From contig CAZFBA010000003.1 of NCBI GenBank assembly GCA_964517135.1, forward strand, positions 140,863 through 204,862: a stretch of 64,000 nt of DNA, read 5' to 3'. Made by a program: the position numbers and the translations under genes. Source of the stretch: an uncultured Gammaproteobacteria bacterium (GTDB taxonomy: Bacteria > Cyanobacteriota > Vampirovibrionia > JBFMGH01). Below the pieces are notes generated by a model. It saw nothing but the letters and a program-made list of their open reading frames with translations, did not search any database and was not told where the DNA came from. Position 1 is the stretch's first letter. Every line of letters begins with the position of its first letter. Of the stretch, positions 11,094 to 52,346 are shown one piece after another.

Positions 11094-14000
11094 ATGAAAA
11101 TGATTAAGTTTTTATATGTATTGGTTATATTAACCCTTGTCATAATAACCGGAACCACAGCTTCTTTCTCTCAAAGCGCCCGAAAAATACTTGAAGTACC
11201 ATACTATATGCAGGATAACGGCCCGGATTGCTGGGCTGCATCGCTATTAATGATAACCAGTGCTGTAAGTCCGAAAACAGACAACAACATACTCAAAGTA
11301 GTCCAGAACGCAGGCGAACAGGACGGTATCGCAACAAGATCTATAGAAGGACACAGTGGTTTCATAGCAGAGGCTACCAGAAGAACCGGTATAGCACCAA
11401 GAACGACAACATACTGGTCAGGTACCAATACTGTATCTTCAATAGCAGGCCATATTAAAAGAATCATAGACAATAACAGGCCGGTTATGTTCTGTTCAAC
11501 TAATGCACTGGGAAGCTCAACAAGTGGACACTGCCTTGTCATAGTTGGCTATGACGGAGATAACACCTTTTATGTTAACGACCCGATAGGCTATGCTAAC
11601 AATATCAATCAGAGAAGGCCATACAGTAAAATATTTACTTCTAATGCCAGCTATGCCGTGGTAGAAATACCTAAAGATATGTCTGCCAACAGAAATCTTG
11701 TTTCTGCCAGAATTATAAACGATGCAATAACTTTTATTAAACCTAAAACCAGTTCATCAAATACTACTTCTATTTCTTACAAACTACATCGTACAAACCC
11801 TGATACATATGTATTTATTGACGATTCAGGAAGCCCTGTAAAGTCAATAGCTTCCGGTTATGACGTTTTATCACTGGAAGAAGGCAGTGCATTTCTTCTT
11901 GCTAACTCTTCAAACAGTTCTAAAACAGTCAAAATAACTGTGGAGATTCAACGAAAAGATAAATCAAAAAAGCTTAAAACTATTACTATGTTTAAAACAT
12001 TGCTGTCCAGTACCAATACTAACCTTGGTAACAGGCTTTCAGACAAGCTGTCAATCTATGAGTTAAGAGATAAGAATAATACTGTTGATTGTGAAATGGT
12101 ATTTACCTTCTCTGATACAGATACAAATAAAATCTATCATAAAGATACCTTCAATTTTAAGCTGGAACCAGATACCACAGAGGTAAAACTCAAAGCAGAA
12201 CAGAAGCAAGATAACCTCTATAAACTGGAAGTTACTTCTGATAACCTGCCAGATCAAATCAAACTCTGTTATACTGTTAAACACAGCAATATAAAGCCTG
12301 ATGAACCTCCATGCACCACTGATAACCCTTTTGAGTATAGATTTGTCAGAGAAGGTTACTACAGTGTAAGCGTTAAGGTCTATCAGCTTGTGCGAACACG
12401 CCTTCTGGAAAAACAGTACGAAACAAAAGAGTTCCTCTTTGGAGAAGCTGAAACCCGTTTAAGGGTAGATAAAGAAGTAAACATCAAATATTCTGAAAAA
12501 GACGGAGAATACTCATTTGAAGCAACGTCTAATATTCCTTTTAATACTGCTGAATGGAAGATTAAAGACTTTAATACCGGACAGATAACAGCATTAAATG
12601 ATAATACTGCCACTATAACACATAAATTTACTGCCGACGGATATTACGATATTACTGTACTTACAAAAGATCCTAAAGATAAGCCTCTTGCAGAATGTAC
12701 AGAAAGAATAGAAGTTAAAGGAGCACAAACAACTGATCAGATTGACGAAGCCTTTAAAAATCGTGATTATAAAACAATTCTCAAATTGATAAGCGGTAAT
12801 AAAAATGCCGAACAGGTGAAAAAAGGTGTTGAATATCTTCATACCATTGCAGATGAATTTCTGACAAAAGATAAAGCCCTGCTGGAAAAGTTTGTTAAAC
12901 TCCAAAGAGAAGATTATCATACATTTCAACAGACTTATGAGAAATATGATCTTGAAAAGAAACAACTGTCACTGGATAATAAAAACGGTAAAAATAATGA
13001 AGCTATAGCCAGTTTAAATAAATGCCTTGATTCACTCTATAAGGCACGTGAAGAGCAGAAAACAAAGATTGAAGATTCTATAAAAGCTATCAATGAAGCG
13101 ATTAATGCCCTTGATGAATATTATTCAAAAATTAATCCTGATGATGACATTACAAAAGAACTGCCACAGGTTTACAGGTTCGATTTAAGCAAAAATATTA
13201 AGTCAAAGCTGGAGTTTGATCCTGATAAAACACTGGAAGCCTATGATTATAAAGCTCTGTGTATTGATGATAGCGCTACCGACGATGATAATGATGTTAA
13301 AGTAACTCTTAAAGCCACTAAAAAGAATGCAAAAGCAAATGAACGTGTTTCATTAACAGCTAAAATAGAAAATGCACCCTGCTCAGGAAATGCCCTCAAG
13401 CTCAGCTGGAGCAATAATGCTGCCGGTATCAGTGGTTTTGACGGAGTATTTGTTGCCAGCACACCCGGTAGCTATTCACCTGCTGTCAGTGCAAGCTGTA
13501 ACGGAAAATCAATTGGGTCAAGTTCCATATCAATAAAAGTCACCGGAGGGGCTACAGGTCAAATAATCGGCCTTGAGGAGAATCAAGTATTTTTTGGCTC
13601 TGAAAAGCTCATTAAACTTCAAACAGATCTAATTAAACCGGCTGAAGTTGATAATAGCTGTAAAAACAATCCTGATAACCCTTTTTGTGTTGATACTACG
13701 CATTCAGGTACAATTAAACCTGTAAATACTGGCAATACAGAGAAAATATTTATACCGGATCCTGATAATGAAGATATAGTGGAACCAGAAGAATTTCCAT
13801 ATCTTGTACGCTGGGATTCAAACAGAAACCTAACCTTTGACCCCCAGGAAATTCAAGGATATTACAATGCTAATTTCAACACCAGAGTGACATTTGACAG
13901 AATTGAAAACCCTGTAAAGATCTGGGCTGAGATACTTCAATATAAAGATGGTAGCTATGAAACAATAGGAGAGTCTGATCTCATAGAAATAGAGGTGATA

Positions 14001-17000
14001 CCACCACAGTTTTCAATGATATTTGATCCCACACAAGATAGAGTTCTTGTAGGAGAGGATGTTACTGTTGCTGTAACAGCAAATCCGCACGTTAAAGATA
14101 GTCTTATCGATTATCGCTGGGTAGAACCCACCAGCAGAAAAGAAATCAGTAATGGCAAAATTTCTTTTAATCCAAAAGATACTAAAACAGTCAATCTACA
14201 CGTCATAGCACGTGTTCCGCACTACGGAGATGTAATAGATGACAATATAAAAGATCAGTTTACTCCTGGAGAACACCTGGTAACAGCACGCCTCATAGGT
14301 CCCAAGTTTGATCAAGACTCTCAAGAATGGAGTACAGCAGACAGAGGACTGGTTACGAAGAAACCAAAACTCGTGACAGGGCAGGCTATACTGGCAGATG
14401 TTACGACACAGGGTATTGAGAAAGAAAATATCAACTACGAATGGAGCTCTAATGAAGGATGCAGCATAGACTCAGTTAGATCAAGTGATGTTGTTACTGT
14501 CAGCAGAAGCACACCGGGTGTATGTACCCTGTCTGTTATAGCCAGAAATAAAGATAAAAACAAACTCGGAAGTGACGAAATTAGTTTCAGTATAGAAGAA
14601 CAAGATTCAGGATTAATAACTCCGCCTGATGACAAAACAAAAGAAGATGACTCCAGGCAAAAACAGGAGCAGGAAGAAGAAAAGCAACGTCAAAATGAAC
14701 AAAAACAACAGGAAGAAAAGAAAAAAGAAGCAAATGAAGCTATAAAAGCCGCTGAAGAAGAGGCAGCTAAAGGCAATTTTGAAGAAGCTGTCAGGCAGGC
14801 TGATAAAGCTGCCGAACTGGATCCTGATAATACTACAATAACAGAAACATTAATTGCTATAAAAGAAAAACAGAAAGAAACTTCTATTAGGATAGAAGAA
14901 ATTGAGGATCACATCAAAAACGAAGATTTTGAAGAGGCAAAAAAAGAAATTGCACAAGTAGAAAGCAATTTGCCGGGCAGCTCTGTTTCAAAAGACCTGA
15001 AAGAAAAGCTCTCAACGGCAAAAAATAGCTTTATACAGAAATCAACTGAAAATTCAAAAGCTAATATTAAAAAAGGTCAGCTAGAAGAAGCTATTAAAAG
15101 TCTGGAAAAAGCAAGCCAGCTTGACCCTGATAATAAGGAACTTAAAGACCTTTTAACCAAAACCAGGCAGGATAAACAGAAAATTTCCGGGTTAAATGAG
15201 CAGTTCCAAAAAGCTATGAACGAAGGAGATTATGTTAAGGCTGATAAAATACTAAAGGAAATGAAGACAATCAGTCATTATGATCCTGAAGTTCAGTCAG
15301 CAAATACTTCTTTAAGCAAACAATCATTCACTAAGCGTGCTGAATTGACCAATGAACTAAATAATATTAATAAGCTGGCTGGCCAAGGTAATATAGAACA
15401 GGCTATATCGAAGGCAGAAACACTTCTTACAGAAGCTCAAAAAGTAAACTATGGTGAAGGAATTACGGCTGATGCCAGAAGCCTGTTAAATGATCTTAAA
15501 AATAAAAAATCTATGTGCGATAGATACATAGCTGAAGCTGAAAGACTAATAGCAGAAGGCTATTATGATAATGCTAAAACATATTTAGACAGTGCAAGAA
15601 CAGCTTTACCAAAATATAAACCTGTTTTAGACCTGGAAGCAAAACTGAACGAGATATTTAATAAGAGAAATGCAATATTAGCAAAGCAAAAAGAGCTGAT
15701 TCAACAGGCCAATGATGAAATTCGTATCTGCAACTATGATCAGGCTGCAGACCTTGCAAATCAAGCTAAAGCCCTGAACCCTGATAATAAGGATATTGAA
15801 ATAGCAGCCTATAATGTTAATAATAAGCACACAATTTTCATGCAGGATGTAGACAGGGCAAGATTATTATTTGATAGAGGTGATATTGATCTTGCCAAAA
15901 AGGAATTGACCAAGCATGCTTCTTATTGTTCTGATAACAGTGCTTATATTGCTGTCAACGATATGATAGATAACTATTATCAGTCTAAAAATAATGAGTT
16001 AGCAGCTAAAATAGCTGAACTTAAAGCATTATTGAATGCCAGAGAGTATACAAAAGTTTCTGATCTCGCAAAAGAGGTCAGAAGTCAATATTCTCCTATC
16101 GGGCAGCAGCAACTGGATATAAATGAACTGGAATCTCAGGCAATTAAGAAACTAAGCAATAAAAAAGGAGCCATAAATTACTTTAATATAGCTCAGACAC
16201 ACTTTATACAGTATAACTATGAAGGCTGCCTCAAGCAATTAGACATACTTGATAACCAGTATCCTGATTGCTGGGAACCTTCAGATGAATGGCCTGACCG
16301 TATAGCTGCTCTGAGAGCTGATGCCAGAGAAAAATTAAACAGGGTTAACATTTTGACCCCACAGGTTAAAAAAGCTGTTGAAAGCAGCAATTTAACCCTA
16401 AATGACCTTAAAAAAGCCTATGAGCAAAGTTTAGAACTATGTAGTTTAAGCCCAAATGATCTTAACTATAGTTCATACAGAAATACACTTCAACTTAAAC
16501 TTTCTCAGGCAGAGCAAAGATCCAGTCAGGAAATTGCTAAAGCCTACAGTGAATTTAAAAAAGCTGAGGATGCTTACAATCTGAATAAATTAGGTGAGGC
16601 TGTCAGGATATTCGGAGAAACTTTTGAGAAATATGACAGCATTCTGGATAAAAATGACCCTCAATATAAGCATTATAAAGCAGCAGCACAAAATGCTCTA
16701 TCTGCTTATGATTCTTATGAAAAGTTTACACGTGATTACAATGATGTATTGAGTTCTTTTGAGGGAGAATTTGATATTAAAAAACTGAATAAAAACTTTC
16801 TGAAAAGGTTACGAGAAGCCATATACACTATAATAACTATCTCACCGAATAAACAGCTTGCCAGACAAACTTTTGGAAATCAATTAGAAACAAGTGCAAA
16901 TCAGTTTGAAAATCTGATGAAACAACAGATTGATCAGTGTAAAATAGCACCGCTAAGCAAAACAAAGAATGAGATTATTGATATATGTACGCTGGCAAAC

Positions 17001-18248
17001 CAGTTTGACCCGGATGACAATGAAGTACAAAACATCTTAAAACGAGCACGCTCAACAACAGATAGTTACACAACATCAGCTACTTCAAAGCCTTCAACAC
17101 CTTCTGTATATTCTCCACCATCAGAAACAAAAATATCTGATAATGGAAATATTGCAGGCTGCGGATTTACAGATACAGCCAGGTTTGCAATACAAAGACC
17201 AAGTGCTGTAAACAAAATAGAAGTATGGTATAAATGGGAGGAGAATCAAACCTCTCTACCATACCTGTTTCACGAACCTTCAGGGAATGTGGTTCGAGGA
17301 GTATTCACCAGAACAGGCTGTGACCCTTACCAGAAGAGCTGGTGCACAGGTTCTGACAACTTGAATAAAGTGCTTCAACCCGGCAATTATGCTGTTACAG
17401 TTCAACCAGGAAGGATCTGTCAGAATTCAGGTACCGGGGGCAACGGCACCATAAGAGTATACGCAGGGCCATTTACGCAGAAAAAACCTGATAGTTATGT
17501 TCCTCCTGTTGCTTCATCTCAAGCAAAAGCTTCTACCCCCTATACTCAAACTTCTGGCGCACCTTTTGATGGTCATTACAGGGGTACATGTAGAATTTAC
17601 AGCGCAACAGGAAACTGTACTATAACCCTTGACATCAAAAACAATTCTGTAAGTGGCGCTATCAACGCTACCATTGAAGGTGATAACGTAACAGGAAGAT
17701 TTTCAGGTAAAGTAACTCCGCCCGGTCCTCAGTACAGCCAGGCATCAGCTCCTGTTAATGCAACTATTACCAGTGGTACAATAAAGGACAATACACTTAA
17801 TACTACGGTAAGCTTTACAGGTAAACTTAAAGGTACTGTCTATACCAAAATTAATAAGGCCAGTGGAGATATAAGCATAATTGTTAGCGGGTCATCAGGT
17901 GGGCCTAAAGGAGAATGGCAGGTATTTAAACAGGGAACTTCTGTATCCACTGCTACAAGTAAACCTGTTCAATCTGCACCAAAGCAAATATCAGTTATTT
18001 TTCAAAATTATTCATCAATGCCGGTTCATTTCTACGCTGCAAACGGAAGCTGTGCACCTAACAACAAAGTATTATCAGGAGGAAGAAAACAGCTTAACCT
18101 TAAAGCATCTTCTATGGCAACATCTTTACACATAGGCAGAAATGGTCAAACAATAGGCACAATTAATTTACCGTTAACCGGTCTGTCTAATGGCCAGCAA
18201 GTCTATTTAATACTGGATAAAAACGGCAGGTTTTACCGATCGAGGTAG
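11094..18248 (+). CDS. giant (2384 aa) secreted multidomain protein: N-terminal papain-like/C39-like cysteine peptidase domain, central spaced TPR-like and coiled-coil region, Ser/Thr/Gly-rich beta-type C-terminal region
   Basis: AGGAG SD and signal peptide (MKMIKFLYVLVILTLVIITGTTASFSQSA). Peptidase_C39-like catalytic motifs (YYMQDNGPDCWAASLLM with Cys; SGHCLVIVGYDGDNTFYVNDP with His). Repeated TPR-type A..LDPDN/LNPDN/FDPDD signatures at roughly regular spacing between residues 1250 and 1990. Lys/Glu/Gln low-complexity tract around 14.64-14.76 kb. Confidence 0.85.
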   Translation: MKMIKFLYVLVILTLVIITGTTASFSQSARKILEVPYYMQDNGPDCWAASLLMITSAVSPKTDNNILKVVQNAGEQDGIATRSIEGHSGFIAEATRRTGIAPRTTTYWSGTNTVSSIAGHIKRIIDNNRPVMFCSTNALGSSTSGHCLVIVGYDGDNTFYVNDPIGYANNINQRRPYSKIFTSNASYAVVEIPKDMSANRNLVSARIINDAITFIKPKTSSSNTTSISYKLHRTNPDTYVFIDDSGSPVKSIASGYDVLSLEEGSAFLLANSSNSSKTVKITVEIQRKDKSKKLKTITMFKTLLSSTNTNLGNRLSDKLSIYELRDKNNTVDCEMVFTFSDTDTNKIYHKDTFNFKLEPDTTEVKLKAEQKQDNLYKLEVTSDNLPDQIKLCYTVKHSNIKPDEPPCTTDNPFEYRFVREGYYSVSVKVYQLVRTRLLEKQYETKEFLFGEAETRLRVDKEVNIKYSEKDGEYSFEATSNIPFNTAEWKIKDFNTGQITALNDNTATITHKFTADGYYDITVLTKDPKDKPLAECTERIEVKGAQTTDQIDEAFKNRDYKTILKLISGNKNAEQVKKGVEYLHTIADEFLTKDKALLEKFVKLQREDYHTFQQTYEKYDLEKKQLSLDNKNGKNNEAIASLNKCLDSLYKAREEQKTKIEDSIKAINEAINALDEYYSKINPDDDITKELPQVYRFDLSKNIKSKLEFDPDKTLEAYDYKALCIDDSATDDDNDVKVTLKATKKNAKANERVSLTAKIENAPCSGNALKLSWSNNAAGISGFDGVFVASTPGSYSPAVSASCNGKSIGSSSISIKVTGGATGQIIGLEENQVFFGSEKLIKLQTDLIKPAEVDNSCKNNPDNPFCVDTTHSGTIKPVNTGNTEKIFIPDPDNEDIVEPEEFPYLVRWDSNRNLTFDPQEIQGYYNANFNTRVTFDRIENPVKIWAEILQYKDGSYETIGESDLIEIEVIPPQFSMIFDPTQDRVLVGEDVTVAVTANPHVKDSLIDYRWVEPTSRKEISNGKISFNPKDTKTVNLHVIARVPHYGDVIDDNIKDQFTPGEHLVTARLIGPKFDQDSQEWSTADRGLVTKKPKLVTGQAILADVTTQGIEKENINYEWSSNEGCSIDSVRSSDVVTVSRSTPGVCTLSVIARNKDKNKLGSDEISFSIEEQDSGLITPPDDKTKEDDSRQKQEQEEEKQRQNEQKQQEEKKKEANEAIKAAEEEAAKGNFEEAVRQADKAAELDPDNTTITETLIAIKEKQKETSIRIEEIEDHIKNEDFEEAKKEIAQVESNLPGSSVSKDLKEKLSTAKNSFIQKSTENSKANIKKGQLEEAIKSLEKASQLDPDNKELKDLLTKTRQDKQKISGLNEQFQKAMNEGDYVKADKILKEMKTISHYDPEVQSANTSLSKQSFTKRAELTNELNNINKLAGQGNIEQAISKAETLLTEAQKVNYGEGITADARSLLNDLKNKKSMCDRYIAEAERLIAEGYYDNAKTYLDSARTALPKYKPVLDLEAKLNEIFNKRNAILAKQKELIQQANDEIRICNYDQAADLANQAKALNPDNKDIEIAAYNVNNKHTIFMQDVDRARLLFDRGDIDLAKKELTKHASYCSDNSAYIAVNDMIDNYYQSKNNELAAKIAELKALLNAREYTKVSDLAKEVRSQYSPIGQQQLDINELESQAIKKLSNKKGAINYFNIAQTHFIQYNYEGCLKQLDILDNQYPDCWEPSDEWPDRIAALRADAREKLNRVNILTPQVKKAVESSNLTLNDLKKAYEQSLELCSLSPNDLNYSSYRNTLQLKLSQAEQRSSQEIAKAYSEFKKAEDAYNLNKLGEAVRIFGETFEKYDSILDKNDPQYKHYKAAAQNALSAYDSYEKFTRDYNDVLSSFEGEFDIKKLNKNFLKRLREAIYTIITISPNKQLARQTFGNQLETSANQFENLMKQQIDQCKIAPLSKTKNEIIDICTLANQFDPDDNEVQNILKRARSTTDSYTTSATSKPSTPSVYSPPSETKISDNGNIAGCGFTDTARFAIQRPSAVNKIEVWYKWEENQTSLPYLFHEPSGNVVRGVFTRTGCDPYQKSWCTGSDNLNKVLQPGNYAVTVQPGRICQNSGTGGNGTIRVYAGPFTQKKPDSYVPPVASSQAKASTPYTQTSGAPFDGHYRGTCRIYSATGNCTITLDIKNNSVSGAINATIEGDNVTGRFSGKVTPPGPQYSQASAPVNATITSGTIKDNTLNTTVSFTGKLKGTVYTKINKASGDISIIVSGSSGGPKGEWQVFKQGTSVSTATSKPVQSAPKQISVIFQNYSSMPVHFYAANGSCAPNNKVLSGGRKQLNLKASSMATSLHIGRNGQTIGTINLPLTGLSNGQQVYLILDKNGRFYRSR

Positions 18249-47401: not shown

Positions 47402-49123
47402 TCAGGACTGTATATTTAGTTTTTTGATAGTGTCTTCAGAAATAAAGACGTGGTTATTCTTTCTTCTGTCACCTTTTCTTCTGCCTGCAACATCGTTTCT
47501 GCTTTCGTTGTTTGTATCCTGAGTTTCTGCCTGGGCTACTGTCCTTCTGTCTATGCTGTTTCTTCTATCTCCATCACGTTTGTCAATTACTACTCTGGTG
47601 CCCATTGTTTCTGTTAGATATTCGTGGAGCATAGCAAGAGATTTATCCAGAACAACTTTTGTTTCGCTGTCATTATCTTTATTTTCATTGACAAAATCAG
47701 TAATTTTATTGACCAGGTTTGACTTTTGTTCAGGGTGAAGATTGACAATATTCCTCAGATAAAGAGCTTCTTTTTGGGTAATTTCTTTTTTATGTTCTTT
47801 TTGTTTGTCGATCTGGTTGAGTTTATTTTTATCTTCTTGAATTTGTCTGGATATAAGGTCAATATTTCTTTGATTGTTCTGAATTTTGCTTTCAGCCATT
47901 TCTTTAGATTTAATAAGATTTGATACCTGTTCACTTGAGGATGATTTAACCCTTTCAAAGTTGTTTATATAGTCAATATCCATCATTTTAGCAACTCTCA
48001 ACTGTGATAAATCAACATCTTCAGCAAGTTTTTCCAGCTGTCTTGTAACTTCCCGGTTAACACCATCAAGTTCTGCCATTTGCTGGTTTACCTGTTGCTG
48101 CATAGCCTGGACCTGTTCGTTTATTTTATTAACACCTTCTCCCACCTGTGAAATGTTATTCTGAGAGTCTTTAAAACCTTCAACCGCTTTCTGGTCGTCG
48201 CTCATTTGTATTTCTTGCTGGGTTTCCAGAACAGTAAGTGCAGCATTAGCACCAGTGCTTACAACACCTAGAACACTGGGTAAGTTCAACCGGCTCATAG
48301 ACTGTAACATTCTTACGTGAGTCTGGTTTTCAAATGCTAATTTTCTATCTTCAAGGTGAAGATCCCAGATGCCTATGAGAGCGTTAAAATAACCAATAAC
48401 TGAATCATCAGCAGGCATTGTAGATGCGAGCCTTTGGGTCATTTGTTCTTCAGTCATATCTTTTCTGGGGTTTGACACCATATATAATTGCTGGGCAAAT
48501 TGATAAAATTCTTTCATAGCCTTTTGATCGTCTTTTATCTGATTTATTCTTGCAGCTTCTCTGATCATTTGATTCATTACAAGCATTTTCTTTTCAGCTT
48601 CTTCTTTTTGCTGGATCAATAAAGCTTTTTGTTCAGGATCTTCTGTGCTTTCAATTCTAGCATCAAGTTGTTCAATTGATTTTTCAAGTTTTTCAGTGCC
48701 ATCTGTAAGTTTATTCATACACCAATTAAGCATTTTAAAAGATTCTGCCCTAACTTGAGAGTTCATTTGGGCTTCATAGCGATCTTTATATTCTTGAAAA
48801 GTTGCCATTTGTTCTCGAAGCTGTTGAACTTTCTCGCTCATGCGTGCCATAAAGGCTTCAATTTTTGAATATCTAAAAATTGACTGCACAGCAATAAGCT
48901 GGGCTTTTAAATTGCTTATTTTGAATGAATTCATCTTGGTTTGTTCCATACCAGCAATAGCAGATTCAAGCTCAAACGCCCTGTATTCAGCTTTTTTAGA
49001 AGACATATCAGCAAAAATCGCATCTGTTTCTGCATCTGCGATTTCCTGCATAGCATTATTAAATGTAGCCATTTTAGCGGCTATCATTGATTTTATCTGA
49101 TCTCTAATAGCATAATCTGTCAT
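47402..49123 (-). CDS. hypothetical long coiled-coil protein with an Arg/Asp-rich C-terminal tail
   Basis: 573 aa, predominantly heptad-like; C-terminus RDGDRRNSIDRRTVAQ...GRRKGDRRKNN; no catalytic motif. Confidence 0.55.
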   Translation of the reverse strand: MTDYAIRDQIKSMIAAKMATFNNAMQEIADAETDAIFADMSSKKAEYRAFELESAIAGMEQTKMNSFKISNLKAQLIAVQSIFRYSKIEAFMARMSEKVQQLREQMATFQEYKDRYEAQMNSQVRAESFKMLNWCMNKLTDGTEKLEKSIEQLDARIESTEDPEQKALLIQQKEEAEKKMLVMNQMIREAARINQIKDDQKAMKEFYQFAQQLYMVSNPRKDMTEEQMTQRLASTMPADDSVIGYFNALIGIWDLHLEDRKLAFENQTHVRMLQSMSRLNLPSVLGVVSTGANAALTVLETQQEIQMSDDQKAVEGFKDSQNNISQVGEGVNKINEQVQAMQQQVNQQMAELDGVNREVTRQLEKLAEDVDLSQLRVAKMMDIDYINNFERVKSSSSEQVSNLIKSKEMAESKIQNNQRNIDLISRQIQEDKNKLNQIDKQKEHKKEITQKEALYLRNIVNLHPEQKSNLVNKITDFVNENKDNDSETKVVLDKSLAMLHEYLTETMGTRVVIDKRDGDRRNSIDRRTVAQAETQDTNNESRNDVAGRRKGDRRKNNHVFISEDTIKKLNIQS

Positions 49124-49291
49124 AACTTTTTCTTTGGCACTGCCTGTTTTTCAAGTAAACCACCCTACTATTATAAAAACAAAAAATGTAACGAAATTGT
49201 TATTTTTGTATTGAAAAGTGTTAAATTTGTAATAAAAATTCATCTATTAAGCCTCTGCGAATCAGTATTTATTAATTGCAAAGATTTAGAC

Positions 49292-49321
49292 TTGACATTA
49301 ACGTAAATGTCTGGTTATAAT
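49292..49321 (+). promoter_or_regulatory. consensus sigma70-type promoter (TTGACA-18-TATAAT)
   Basis: TTGACA at 49292..49297 and a perfect TATAAT at 49316..49321 with an 18-bp spacer; about 370 bp upstream of the SPFH gene. Confidence 0.5.
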
Positions 49322-49583
49322 ATATTTGAGAATATTTCTCAATTGCTCGGCATCTTATTTAATACAGATTGATAATTACTATTATTAAGGAGGTGATCTT
49401 ACCAGGTAAAAAGCTAAAAGTTACTATATGTACTGCATAAGAAAAATCACAGGTTGATAACCTGACAAAATTGAAACAAATAGACCAACTGCAACAGGCA
49501 AATTAGCCTGTTGTAGTATATTATAAAGATAAATATTGCTCTATTTTAATTTATTACGATATAACACAAAAATAAAACTTTTT

Positions 49584-49622
49584 TGTGACCGTCATCACAA
49601 AATTTTTGTGATTTTGATCACA
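49584..49622. promoter_or_regulatory. two tandem perfect CRP/FNR-family-type palindromes TGTGA-N6-TCACA
   Basis: TGTGACCGTCATCACA (49584..49599) and TGTGATTTTGATCACA (49607..49622), centres 23 bp apart, about 70-100 bp upstream of the 49690 start. Confidence 0.55.
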
Positions 49623-49689
49623 GAATGAATCTATCAAAAATGAGATTATGGAAACATGAATCGGTAAAAACCTGAAATCGAGGGAGAGT

Positions 49690-50910
49690 ATGAATAGCAA
49701 TAAAAGCTTTGGCATCGTAACAGTTGCCCCGAACGAGTATGTCGTTCACACAAGACTGGGCAAGATTAAAAATGAGGGGCTTGGTCAAACATTTTTCCTT
49801 GTCCCGATGATAGATAGCTACATTAAGTTTTCTATAACCCCCCACAAGATTAACTTCTATGCTGACAATATCACCAAAGAGCGTCAGGGAGTTGGCATAG
49901 ACGGCTTTCTTATCTGGTCAATCGATGACGGTAACAGGGCCTACAAAAAAATTGATTCTTCTGATCTTGAATCTATTGATAATCTGTCACTTCAGCTTAT
50001 TGATATTTCTGTATCCATTGCAAGACACACCATTTCAAATATGACACTGGATGAAGTATTAACCAACAGGGAAATTCTGGTAGAAAAATTAACTCATCAG
50101 CTTGAAAAAATTATTGGAGACTGGGGGCTCAAGATTGAAGCCATAGAAATTAAAGAAGTAAGGGTTCTGTCAGAGACTCTTTTTGAAAGCCTTCAGGCTC
50201 CTTATAGAAATGAACAGTTAAAAATTGCTGAACACTCAAGGTTAGAGGTTAAAAAATCAATTGAAAATACTAGCATTGAAACTGAATCAGCAATACGTAT
50301 AAGAAAATCTGAACAAGAATTAATGGCTAAAGAAATCGAAATTGATAATACTGATAAACAAAGCCTCATGGAACATAACGCCCGACTGAAAGAAGAAGAG
50401 AGACAACTTAAACAAAAACTGACCTCTCTTGAATATCAAAGTCAGTCTGAGATAAAACAAAAAGAACTTACCAGACAACAGGCAGAAAAAGATAAAGAGC
50501 TTATTACATCTATTGAAGAATCAAAACGTGCCGTCATCAAAGAACAATATGAAACCGAAAAATATTCAGTAAAAGAAGAAGCCAGCAAAAATTTACTGTC
50601 AAAAGAAAGCGAACTCAACCTTAAGGATAGAGATTTAGAATACATTCAAAAAGAAAGAGAAGCTGAGGTTGGCTATAAAAGAGCCTTAAACGATATTAAT
50701 AATGACCTGAGCCACGAAGCAATGATGAAAACACTTTTTATAGAAATGGGTCATTCATTGAAAAATATGAACTTTGAAAAAGCACAATGGTACTCTATGG
50801 GAGACACAAGCCCGCTCGGAACTCTACCAAAAACAATCGTAGAAATAGCCACAACACTTCAGGGAATGGGCTTTATCAACCCGGACAAACCACAACAAGA
50901 AGCCGGTTAG
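49690..50910 (+). CDS. SPFH/band-7 (flotillin-like) domain protein with a C-terminal coiled coil
   Basis: AGGGAGAG SD; N-terminus FGIVTVAPNEYVVHTRLGKIKNEGLGQTFFLVPMIDSY typical of SPFH; long Glu/Lys-rich helical C-terminus. Confidence 0.8.
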   Translation: MNSNKSFGIVTVAPNEYVVHTRLGKIKNEGLGQTFFLVPMIDSYIKFSITPHKINFYADNITKERQGVGIDGFLIWSIDDGNRAYKKIDSSDLESIDNLSLQLIDISVSIARHTISNMTLDEVLTNREILVEKLTHQLEKIIGDWGLKIEAIEIKEVRVLSETLFESLQAPYRNEQLKIAEHSRLEVKKSIENTSIETESAIRIRKSEQELMAKEIEIDNTDKQSLMEHNARLKEEERQLKQKLTSLEYQSQSEIKQKELTRQQAEKDKELITSIEESKRAVIKEQYETEKYSVKEEASKNLLSKESELNLKDRDLEYIQKEREAEVGYKRALNDINNDLSHEAMMKTLFIEMGHSLKNMNFEKAQWYSMGDTSPLGTLPKTIVEIATTLQGMGFINPDKPQQEAG

Positions 50911-51443: not shown

Positions 51444-52091
51444 TTATTGAATGGGTTTTCCATTCTTGTAATAATCGCTATAGATTTCTATAGTGCTTAT
51501 TATAGTGCTTTCAGGATAATTTTTTAGAAGCTGTAATTCAGCTTTCTCATTCATTGTGCCGGTATATTTAAACAGATCTGCTAATCCAGGGTTATAAACT
51601 CCTACTATTAGGTTTATAGAGTATTTATCGTGAACACTGGTTTCTTTTACCGGCCATTTGTCGAAGCTTACAATGTATCCATTTGGGCCACCCAGATATT
51701 CAGGCTCACCATATTTATCTATCAGCTCTGAAATCTTTAAATCAACGCTTATATCATCCTTATAAAAAGTATAAATAGGATTGGAAGTCATTATATAACG
51801 GATAGGTGCCATTTCATCATCAAGCTCTCTTTTGGTTGAAAATTCAAGTAAGAAGTTGCCTGTTTCGTCAAACACGTAGTATCCCGTCTGGCTGTCATTG
51901 ATTTTCAAAATATAGTCAGACAAATTTTCTTTTACTGTTTTCAATGAATCCCCTATGCAAACCTTTCCAATACAATATTCGTTTATTTCAAGGTCATCGA
52001 GAGGTAAAAGAGACTCTTGAGCAAAGATAACACTGCTTATACTAAAGTAAGTCAGCATAAATACCCCTAATATACTTACTATGTTTTTCAT
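51444..52091 (-). CDS. hypothetical secreted protein
   Basis: Signal peptide MKNIVSILGVFMLTYFSISSVIFAQE; no recognised domain. Confidence 0.5.
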   Translation of the reverse strand: MKNIVSILGVFMLTYFSISSVIFAQESLLPLDDLEINEYCIGKVCIGDSLKTVKENLSDYILKINDSQTGYYVFDETGNFLLEFSTKRELDDEMAPIRYIMTSNPIYTFYKDDISVDLKISELIDKYGEPEYLGGPNGYIVSFDKWPVKETSVHDKYSINLIVGVYNPGLADLFKYTGTMNEKAELQLLKNYPESTIISTIEIYSDYYKNGKPIQ

Positions 52092-52346
52092 TCTGTTTTT
52101 TTCCTATCTGTTATTTTAAATTGAAAATTTTTATTAAACATTGCATTCTTATTATCCAATTTTTTATTTAAAACAAAAAGCAAAAAATCTTAAGAATTAC
52201 AAAATATTTCATATTTTTTTTAAAACTTCTTGCCAAAACCTGTTGAATTCAGTCAGAAAAATAAATTTTGGATAGAAAAAGCCTCACTTATGTGAGGCAT
52301 CAGGTAAGACAATTAAATTATCTGGTTTTTCTCTCTCTCCTCAATA

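Follow-up and report, generated by a model that had tools for sequence, protein, structure and literature searches.

The interval between positions 49292 and 49649 of the DNA analyzed here, a stretch of 64,000 nucleotides (nt) with a GC content of 36% (the window), lies upstream of a gene encoding an SPFH/Band 7 protein and resembles parts of several described regulatory systems. One is that of adjacent operators in temperate phages; in lambda the cooperative operators OR1, OR2 and OR3 have centers 22–24 bp apart and overlap core promoter elements. Another comprises the class II CRP promoters, of which galP1 of Escherichia coli and the cyanobacterial targets of SYCRP1 and AnCrp are examples. 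In these the site overlaps the −35 position, the −35 element is weak or absent, and the hallmark is that 22 bp separate the site from the second base of the −10 element (PMC10187061). The CRP-activated promoters of cyanobacteria have a TAN3T box ~22 bp after the site (PMC2633013). Tandem CRP(Mt) sites are found in the whiB1 promoter of Mycobacterium tuberculosis, centered at −58.5 and −37.5 (a spacing of 21 bp) and followed by an extended −10 (PMC2844151). There the occupation of one site helps that of the other, and double occupancy represses, as no C-terminal domain of the RNA polymerase α subunit (α-CTD) fits between the dimers (PMC2844151). Finally, the STAB-SD of cry3A in Bacillus thuringiensis is a Shine-Dalgarno (SD)-like element that binds the 30S subunit without initiation, and blocks 5′-to-3′ decay by RNase J1 (PMC4113751).

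Upstream of the SPFH gene are two palindromes identical to the 16-bp palindrome of the class II CRP promoters. The one nearer to the gene overlaps the −35 position of a predicted promoter, with 21 nt to the −10 hexamer and 22 nt to its second base, and the −35 is weak, as in the class II promoters. Unlike those promoters, the predicted −10 is GAnnAT with a TG extension, there is a second site 23 bp upstream, and the target is an SPFH gene; unlike the natural CRP sites of E. coli, both sites are perfect matches to the consensus (PMC10187061). The arrangement is like that of whiB1 in having two adjacent CRP-type sites before an extended −10, with no room for an α-CTD between the dimers. However, the whiB1 sites are 21 bp apart and on the same face, whereas those here are separated by 23 bp (22 bp in two lineages) and placed at −64.5 and −41.5. 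The whiB1 sites are also imperfect and differ in affinity, which gives first activation and later repression, whereas with two perfect sites graded occupancy is less obvious. The spacing of the palindromes and their overlap with core promoter elements recall the phage operators, but the sites lie upstream of the −10 at the distance expected of an activator rather than over −10/+1, and the locus is chromosomal, syntenic in 11 lineages and not a mobile element. Further upstream is a second unit that we term element A. It has a motif that, like the STAB-SD of cry3A, complements the 3′ end of 16S rRNA, starts no translation and would lie near the 5′ end of a transcript. The cry3A sequence is within the leader of a translated mRNA, whereas that of element A is in a short hairpin-closed unit ~300 nt before the next gene.

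Both modules are real and non-random. On balance we think it probable that the interval comprises two independent units, namely an SPFH promoter with CRP-type sites and element A. The features listed in the original prediction, which was made from the sequence of the window, were all found to be present, with one hairpin coordinate displaced by a single base.

The lineages compared

The SPFH orthogroup is small, consisting of 11 clusters with protein identities of 62–100%. The nearest named relatives of the SPFH protein, and of release factor 2 encoded in the window, are in metagenome-assembled genomes labeled Cyanobacteriota, Candidatus Melainabacteria and Candidatus Gastranaerophilales. The loci compared comprised the DNA around ten SPFH clusters, together with identical copies from other samples. 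A scan of metagenome collections using the SPFH protein alignment gave no relatives, and a scan of a genome collection gave one short contig. The clade seems to be absent from the metagenome and viral collections that were scanned, and the covariation analysis of element A therefore rests on four sequences.

Two palindromes are invariant upstream of the SPFH orthologs

Site 1 is TGTGA-ccgtca-TCACA (TGTGACCGTCATCACA) at 49584–49599, and site 2 is TGTGA-ttttga-TCACA (TGTGATTTTGATCACA) at 49607–49622. Each is a perfect palindrome with no strand assigned, and together with the predicted −10 they form a module spanning 49584–49649. Two perfect TGTGA-N6-TCACA sequences are observed in the 64 kb where 0.05 are expected, and two were reached in one of 100 shuffles. 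This bears out the original prediction, which had noted two such sites and no other in the intergenic regions; there is no further perfect copy anywhere in the window. Allowing up to one mismatch, no other intergenic site was found in 137 kb of clade sequence plus 33 kb of extra loci (~16 kb of which is new flank).

Conservation upstream of orthologs had been set as a test of the sites, and the outcome is clear. The SPFH orthologs concerned have protein identities of 62–79%. Both palindromes are perfect upstream of the gene in all 11 lineages, located 83–85 and 105–108 nt 5′ of the ATG in ten of them and in the same alignment columns in the other (L059). The pairwise identity across the lineages is 1.00 for all four half-sites, and for the GAAT that follows site 2. 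It falls to 0.49 in the spacer of site 1, 0.61 in the linker between the sites and 0.36–0.46 in the flanks, with values of 0.82 for the T-rich spacer of site 2 and 0.89 for a TGnGAnnAT sequence further downstream. Thus across the 11 lineages the 20 half-site positions exhibit neither a substitution nor a compensatory change, in contrast to the free variation of the loops and flanks. Invariant half-sites beside freely varying loops are the signature of base-specific recognition of DNA, and not of an RNA stem.

This comparison also deals with the idea that the palindromes act as RNA, forming hairpins in a 5′ leader or a weak terminator of element A, instead of binding protein as DNA. Each could fold into a hairpin of 5–6 bp, the two sites could pair with each other (giving microRNA-precursor-like noise matches in Rfam), and site 1 is followed by AAAATTTTT. 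Yet the stems would be weak with just two G-C pairs, the absence of any compensatory change is not what is expected of a conserved stem, and the predicted transcription start at ~49656 is downstream of both sites. We regard an RNA role for the palindromes as very improbable.

The pattern of conservation provides strong support for the palindromes as a protein-binding footprint, most simply read as DNA sites for a dimeric regulator of the Crp/Fnr family with CRP-type specificity. The specificities of NtcA (GTA-N8-TAC) and FNR (TTGAT-N4-ATCAA) were considered and set aside, as they do not fit the invariant GTG/CAC and the half-site sequence.

Geometry of the predicted SPFH promoter

The sequence TGaGATTAT at 49641–49649 on the plus strand is the predicted extended −10 element. 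The TG, GA and AT of TGnGAnnAT are invariant in the 11 lineages. These include the positions that are most important in an extended −10 (TG at −15/−14, A at both −11 and −8, and T at −7), and the two middle bases that vary are the least important. When GATTAT is set as −12 to −7, the transcription start would be near 49656, which centers site 2 at about −41.5 and site 1 at about −64.5. Site 2 and the −10 hexamer are 21 nt apart in each of the 11 lineages, without any insertion or deletion, despite variation in sequence over the 14 or more intervening nucleotides. The conserved GAAT on the plus strand (49623–49626) abuts site 2, and with the preceding CA generates CAGAAT (49621–49626). This falls on the position of a −35 hexamer with a 17-nt spacer, a position that follows from that of the −10, and is a poor match to a −35 element.

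The arrangement would correspond to a class II promoter of CRP/FNR type, for which the spacing fits exactly, given the predicted −10 and start. Control of the SPFH gene by a CRP/FNR-family protein had been one of the readings offered in the original prediction, and it gains strong support from the invariance of the palindromes in 11 of 11 lineages and from their class II spacing to a conserved −10. A regulator bound at site 2 would replace the −35 region, and would most likely activate SPFH transcription by a class II mechanism. A second dimer at site 1 (about −64.5) would bind directly beside the first at −41.5. It might either aid occupancy cooperatively, or modulate activation at high regulator activity as in the whiB1 promoter of M. 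tuberculosis.

What protein binds the palindromes?

A number of observations weigh against CRP-type activation of the SPFH promoter. The proposed −10 begins with G and not T, and a TAAAAT sequence is present 6 nt further downstream in 10 of the 11 lineages; were that the true −10, site 2 would be centered at −47.5. We prefer TGnGAnnAT as the −10 because the window has GGAAAC where the other lineages have TAAAAT. In addition, −64.5 is not a canonical class I position. No Crp/Fnr-family protein was detected by Pfam among 44 open reading frames (ORFs) of the window, nor by phmmer among ORFs of at least 100 amino acids in the window and the fetched loci using an E. coli CRP query, nor in ~16 kb of extra flank beyond both ends of the window (the contig is at least 274 kb long). 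We also found no literature on Crp or cAMP in Melainabacteria. Because no such protein was found in the regions searched, we infer the identity of the binding protein as CRP-type from the sequence of its sites. A TetR-family protein and a response regulator of LuxR type are encoded in the window, but the relatives show no linkage of either to the SPFH locus.

The last point against comes from phages. A scan of IMG/VR for two perfect sites 6–7 nt apart yielded 42 phage contigs belonging to several unrelated families (L017–L058; e.g. L024:4063–4101 and L037:7600–7700), where by our own order-of-magnitude estimate fewer than one pair would be expected by chance. The centers are 22–23 bp apart, and in L033, L037 and L042 there are arrays of three to four sites. 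The largest family has, on the opposite strand, a TTGACA box that precedes the first site by 17 nt, such that the sites cover −10/+1. This suggests that the phage sites are repressor operators, and therefore that the TGTGA-N6-TCACA motif is no proof of a CRP-type activator.

The palindromes upstream of the SPFH gene could by the same token be lambda-style adjacent operators for a helix-turn-helix repressor outside the Crp family. Cooperative dimers 23 bp apart would then cover the −35 and shut off an extended −10 promoter that requires no activator. The phage contigs have tandem perfect copies of this motif with a matching spacing, and the failure to find a Crp gene in the window, loci or flank is in keeping with this. 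So too are the 22–23-bp spacing, which leaves no room for an α-CTD between the dimers, and the TG extension, with which a promoter can work without a −35. But the half-site is the exact CRP consensus, and the −10 keeps the class II distance from the site in all 11 lineages although the sequence between is free to change; this is a constraint needed by activators and not by repressors. The −35 is poor, no repressor gene is present beside the sites in any of the 11 loci, and the lineage is cyanobacterial, where class II promoters of Crp/NtcA type are the norm (PMC2633013). On this evidence we consider such a repressor to be unlikely, and retain class II activation by a CRP-type protein as the preferred interpretation of the palindromes.

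Element A has a consensus promoter and conserved terminal structures

Element A begins with the plus-strand sequence TTGACA-18-TATAAT at 49292–49321. The consensus σ70 promoter that had been predicted here scores 12/12 and is the only such promoter on either strand of the window, where first-order Markov simulations give an expectation of 0.12. A BLAST comparison of intergenic regions revealed that the sequence from 49290 to 49355 is conserved in three further lineages (L008, L010 and L015), in which the promoter scores 11/12, 11/12 and 12/12 respectively. The four lineages align with an invariant block ACTTGACAnTnACGT followed by TTATAnT, which together constitute the promoter, and nhmmer found exactly one copy of element A per locus. 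The spacer has a conserved core TnACGTnA; at 49298–49311 of the window and the homologous positions of the relatives, three lineages have TAACGTAA and L015 has the exact reverse complement of this, TTACGTTA. Such conservation points to a further binding site within the promoter.

Directly after the −10 is the palindrome TTGAGAA-tat-TTCTCAA (plus strand, 49326–49342), within which TGAGAATnnTTCTCAA (TGAGAAT..TTCTCAA) is invariant in the four lineages. The predicted start is at about 49328, and the palindrome folds as a 5′ hairpin in both minimum-free-energy and centroid structures. It could be a 5′-terminal RNA hairpin or an operator. The same palindrome supplies a TTGAGA as the −35 of an opposite-strand promoter-like site scoring 11/12, found at L008:3504..3475 and L015:318..289 on the minus strand. 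Although this might allow divergent transcription, the site is probably a by-product of the symmetry of the palindrome. As a minus-strand promoter overlapping that of element A, TTGAGA-18-TATAAT was rejected, since it degrades to TATAAC in the window (49343..49315) and in L010.

Two hairpins had been predicted further downstream, and both are real. The first, CAGGTT-gat-AACCTG on the plus strand, begins at 49450 and not at 49451 as was stated, and extends to 49464. It is specific to the lineage of the window, with no counterpart in L008, L010 or L015, and is terminator-like on the minus strand. The second, CAACAGGC-aaatta-GCCTGTTG, was correctly placed with its core at 49492–49513 on the plus strand, and can be extended to 49489–49516. 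We term this the terminal hairpin. Homologous hairpins are present in all four lineages, with arms CAACAGGC/GCCTGTTG, ACTACGG/CCGTGGT, ACTACAGG/CCTGTAGT and TTACTGCAGG/CCTGCAGTAA. In this alignment 97% of cells are paired, and three of the nine pairs have compensatory changes among the four sequences; slid controls gave none. Two G·U pairs of the hairpin are valid on the plus strand only, becoming A·C on the other. The plus strand of element A also folds better than its complement when each is compared with shuffled sequences (z = −3.25 versus −1.68). Transcription of an RNA from the minus strand within 49440–49513, using a promoter-like sequence at 49549..49520 and the terminator-like 49464..49450, was rejected on the grounds that these features are unconserved, the minus-strand fold is no better than shuffles and the G·U pairs fit the plus strand alone.

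The terminal hairpin is a probable intrinsic terminator with a weak U-tail. In a scan for terminators on the plus strand the L008 hairpin passes but that of the window fails, because its tail is TAGTATAT. The element is 160–215 nt long in the four lineages, and beyond the promoter, palindrome, SD-like core and hairpin its interior is mostly unconserved. No match at the Rfam gathering threshold was obtained for the window and nine related loci; at E values up to 10 the matches were all below threshold and fell on terminator-like or palindromic segments. The search for tRNA and tmRNA was likewise negative.

The SD-like motif of element A

The plus-strand 12-mer AAGGAGGTGATC at 49387–49398 is the longest complement in the window to the canonical 3′ end of 16S rRNA (the 3′ end of the host's own 16S rRNA is encoded outside the window); all others are of 8 nt or shorter. 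By comparison, the SD matches of real genes in the window are of 4–5 nt only, and around half of the 23 genes that were checked have one. The 12-nt complement with no associated ORF thus proved to be both present and unique in the window. Nor is there a usable start codon nearby, the sole ATG in the vicinity (49428) giving MYCIRKITG* (9 amino acids). No ORF of 30 or more codons lies wholly within 49307–49535 on either strand, shorter ones having been judged simply by reading the sequence.

The conserved core of the motif is GGrGGTGrT. It is GGAGGTGAT in the window, and GGGGGTGGT, GGAGGTGGT and GGAGGTGGT in L008, L010 and L015 respectively, and it lies 55–71 nt after the predicted start in the four lineages (~60 nt in the window). 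The cores of the relatives differ from that of the window by two A-to-G transitions, and pairing with the CCUCCACUA partner is kept through G·U pairs. This is weak but directional evidence that selection may preserve pairing with a partner rich in pyrimidines, for example the 16S tail. Most of the motif is left unpaired in the centroid fold. The impression that it is not conserved, which is given by the regular expression GGAGGTGA and by misalignment in MAFFT, was overturned by anchored alignment.

A leader peptide with a non-canonical start had been suggested as one function of the motif. The 12-mer would indeed be a very strong SD, and the near-cognate codons ATC, ATA and ATT occur 2–5 nt after GGAGG in the four lineages. 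However, there is no conserved reading frame after the motif. The frames from the near-cognate codons are of 14, 6, 1 and 4 codons, and those from the GTG inside the motif are of 15, 2, 18 and 6 codons, with no shared residues in either set. Moreover, the nearest candidate starts are too close to the SD, and the sequence 3′ of the motif is wholly unconserved. We therefore reject translation of a short leader peptide, for which we see scarcely any remaining likelihood.

A small RNA or a leader of the SPFH gene?

From 260 bp upstream, the consensus promoter of element A would drive a transcript of ~190 nt that starts with a 5′ hairpin. This would expose a 9–12-nt complement of the 3′ end of 16S rRNA ~60 nt from its start, end at the structurally conserved hairpin and encode no protein. 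Element A is most likely a small non-coding RNA, as judged from this organization. A small RNA carrying an SD mimic was one of the readings in the original prediction, and as a candidate it is strengthened by three other lineages, in which the promoter recurs together with the 5′ palindrome, the SD-like motif and the terminal hairpin. With hairpins at both its 5′ and 3′ termini and the SD-like motif, it has what would be the anatomy of a very stable transcript. The SD-like motif would be the functional core, either recruiting 30S subunits to protect the RNA in the manner of a STAB-SD, or acting as a seed for CU-rich targets. At 9–12 nt, its complement is two to three times the length of any real SD in the window. 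A more ambitious possibility is that element A is a highly expressed small RNA that binds the anti-SD of free 30S subunits and, beyond protecting itself, tunes SD-dependent initiation throughout the cell as a sponge or decoy for these subunits; we regard this as a long shot.

Other findings are less favorable to element A as an independent small RNA gene. The U-tract after the terminal hairpin is poor in the window and L015 and moderate in L010, being good in L008 alone. Furthermore the element is known from four lineages only, and its promoter-plus-palindrome pattern has no further copies in the public metagenome or viral collections.

The relationship between the two modules is informative. 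Six lineages in which the upstream DNA is covered keep the SPFH promoter but have no element A, while a further lineage (L007) has only 294 nt of upstream sequence. The DNA between the terminal hairpin and site 1 is unconserved and varies in length from 70 to 430 nt. Element A is therefore probably a separate unit that neighbors the SPFH gene by chance, and the single integrated control region that had been envisaged for this interval finds no support.

The same observations bear on a scheme in which element A is a distal constitutive promoter with a long SPFH leader, the 12-mer acting as a STAB-SD that blocks 5′-to-3′ decay and the terminal hairpin as a leaky or regulated attenuator, and the proximal promoter being the regulated one. 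In all four lineages that have it, element A is directly upstream of the SPFH gene and points towards it, although the gene on its other side differs (uvrC in L008 and L010, and a 573-amino-acid coiled-coil protein in the window). The poor U-tail of the hairpin in the window might permit readthrough, and a precedent is offered by cry3A, whose transcription starts distally at −558 and whose STAB-SD is found at the 5′ end left by processing (PMC4113751). Against this are the six of 11 lineages that dispense with element A, the unconserved stretch from the hairpin to site 1, and the structural conservation of the hairpin, of which the L008 copy scores as a terminator. A long leader thus seems improbable to us, and we continue to treat element A as a probable small RNA gene independent of the SPFH promoter.

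The SPFH gene and its neighbors

The SPFH/Band 7 gene occupies 49690–50910 on the plus strand, beginning with ATG at 49690. Its SD sequence is GAGGGAGAG at 49680–49688 on the same strand, of which the AGAGGG core is kept in the orthologs. The encoded protein of 406 amino acids has an SPFH domain (Pfam Band_7, E = 2e-23) and a long charged C-terminal half. Among proteins of solved structure it is closest in sequence to stomatin and QmcA (E about 6e-10). Residue 16 is the first to be aligned, opposite residue 37–81 of the stomatin chains, and their N-terminal pre-SPFH segment has no counterpart here. No NCBIfam model matches the protein, and Band_7 is the only Pfam match. The gene had been labeled a flotillin, but with the Band_7 match alone, and with stomatin and QmcA as the best solved relatives, that name is not established.

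The upstream neighbor of the SPFH gene varies, being uvrC in most lineages, carbonic anhydrase in one and, in the window, the coiled-coil protein. Synteny is lost exactly in the region upstream of the SPFH gene, where the window gene at 47402–49123 (minus strand) stands in place of the uvrC of L008 and L010–L013. Its product is the charged coiled-coil protein of 573 amino acids, which has no family match. Element A is on the SPFH side of the break.

On the 3′ side of the SPFH gene, at 51444–52091 (minus strand) of the window and at orthologous positions, is a convergent gene for a signal-peptide protein of 212–231 amino acids. This has no Pfam or NCBIfam match, and is kept in all lineages with enough downstream DNA except L014. 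It is possible that this secreted protein is a functional partner of SPFH, in place of NfeD.

Other conserved elements

In seven lineages the DNA between uvrC and the SPFH gene contains another conserved non-coding block, element B, which is not present in the SPFH intergenic region of the window. Copies are located at L008:3178–3330, L010:3340–3500, L011:3330–3490, L012:3600–3745, L013:3722–3870 and L016:1–140, and in L059 there are two in tandem at 105–245 and 350–495. Read on the minus strand, the element has the conserved boxes TTAGCAACTTTT and TTATATAAGCAG, and after them ATGTGAGGAGAGAGAGATACCAAGTAAG and a GTATAC hairpin with 8–9 T behind it. The T number nine in seven of the eight copies, and the whole makes a strong intrinsic terminator. 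Element B has no match in Rfam, and looks like another family of small RNA genes on the basis of these features. Pairing between elements A and B was considered and dismissed, as just 5 bp could form.

On the minus strand of the window at 52265–52345, TTGAGGAGAGAGAGAAAAACCAG is found right after the stop codon of an alpha-amylase-like gene, with a hairpin CCTCAC-ataa-GTGAGG and then CTTTTT ~25 nt beyond it. The purine-rich box there has an exact 14-mer in common with element B, and may represent a version of the element B motif located in a 3′ untranslated region. Elsewhere in the window, positions 11094–18248 encode a protein of 2384 amino acids with an N-terminal cysteine protease domain (Peptidase_C39-like/C70), a PKD domain and TPR repeats.

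Implications

Neither the SPFH promoter nor element A overturns current understanding. The promoter would exhibit a textbook kind of control, in which two perfect and invariant sites link an SPFH membrane-scaffold gene to a CRP-type regulator. This gives a clean and testable regulatory connection in a lineage without genetics, the non-photosynthetic relatives of cyanobacteria that are known from metagenomes only. The DNA specificity of the putative regulator appears to be the same as that of E. coli CRP, and with perfect consensus sites the SPFH promoter lends itself to direct assay in E. coli or Synechocystis. A search for the regulon in complete genomes of Melainabacteria could also start from the site model. 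Element A is a candidate for a new, narrowly distributed family of small RNAs in a phylum from which none is described, and would provide a rare example outside the Firmicutes of a conserved SD look-alike that has a non-translational role.

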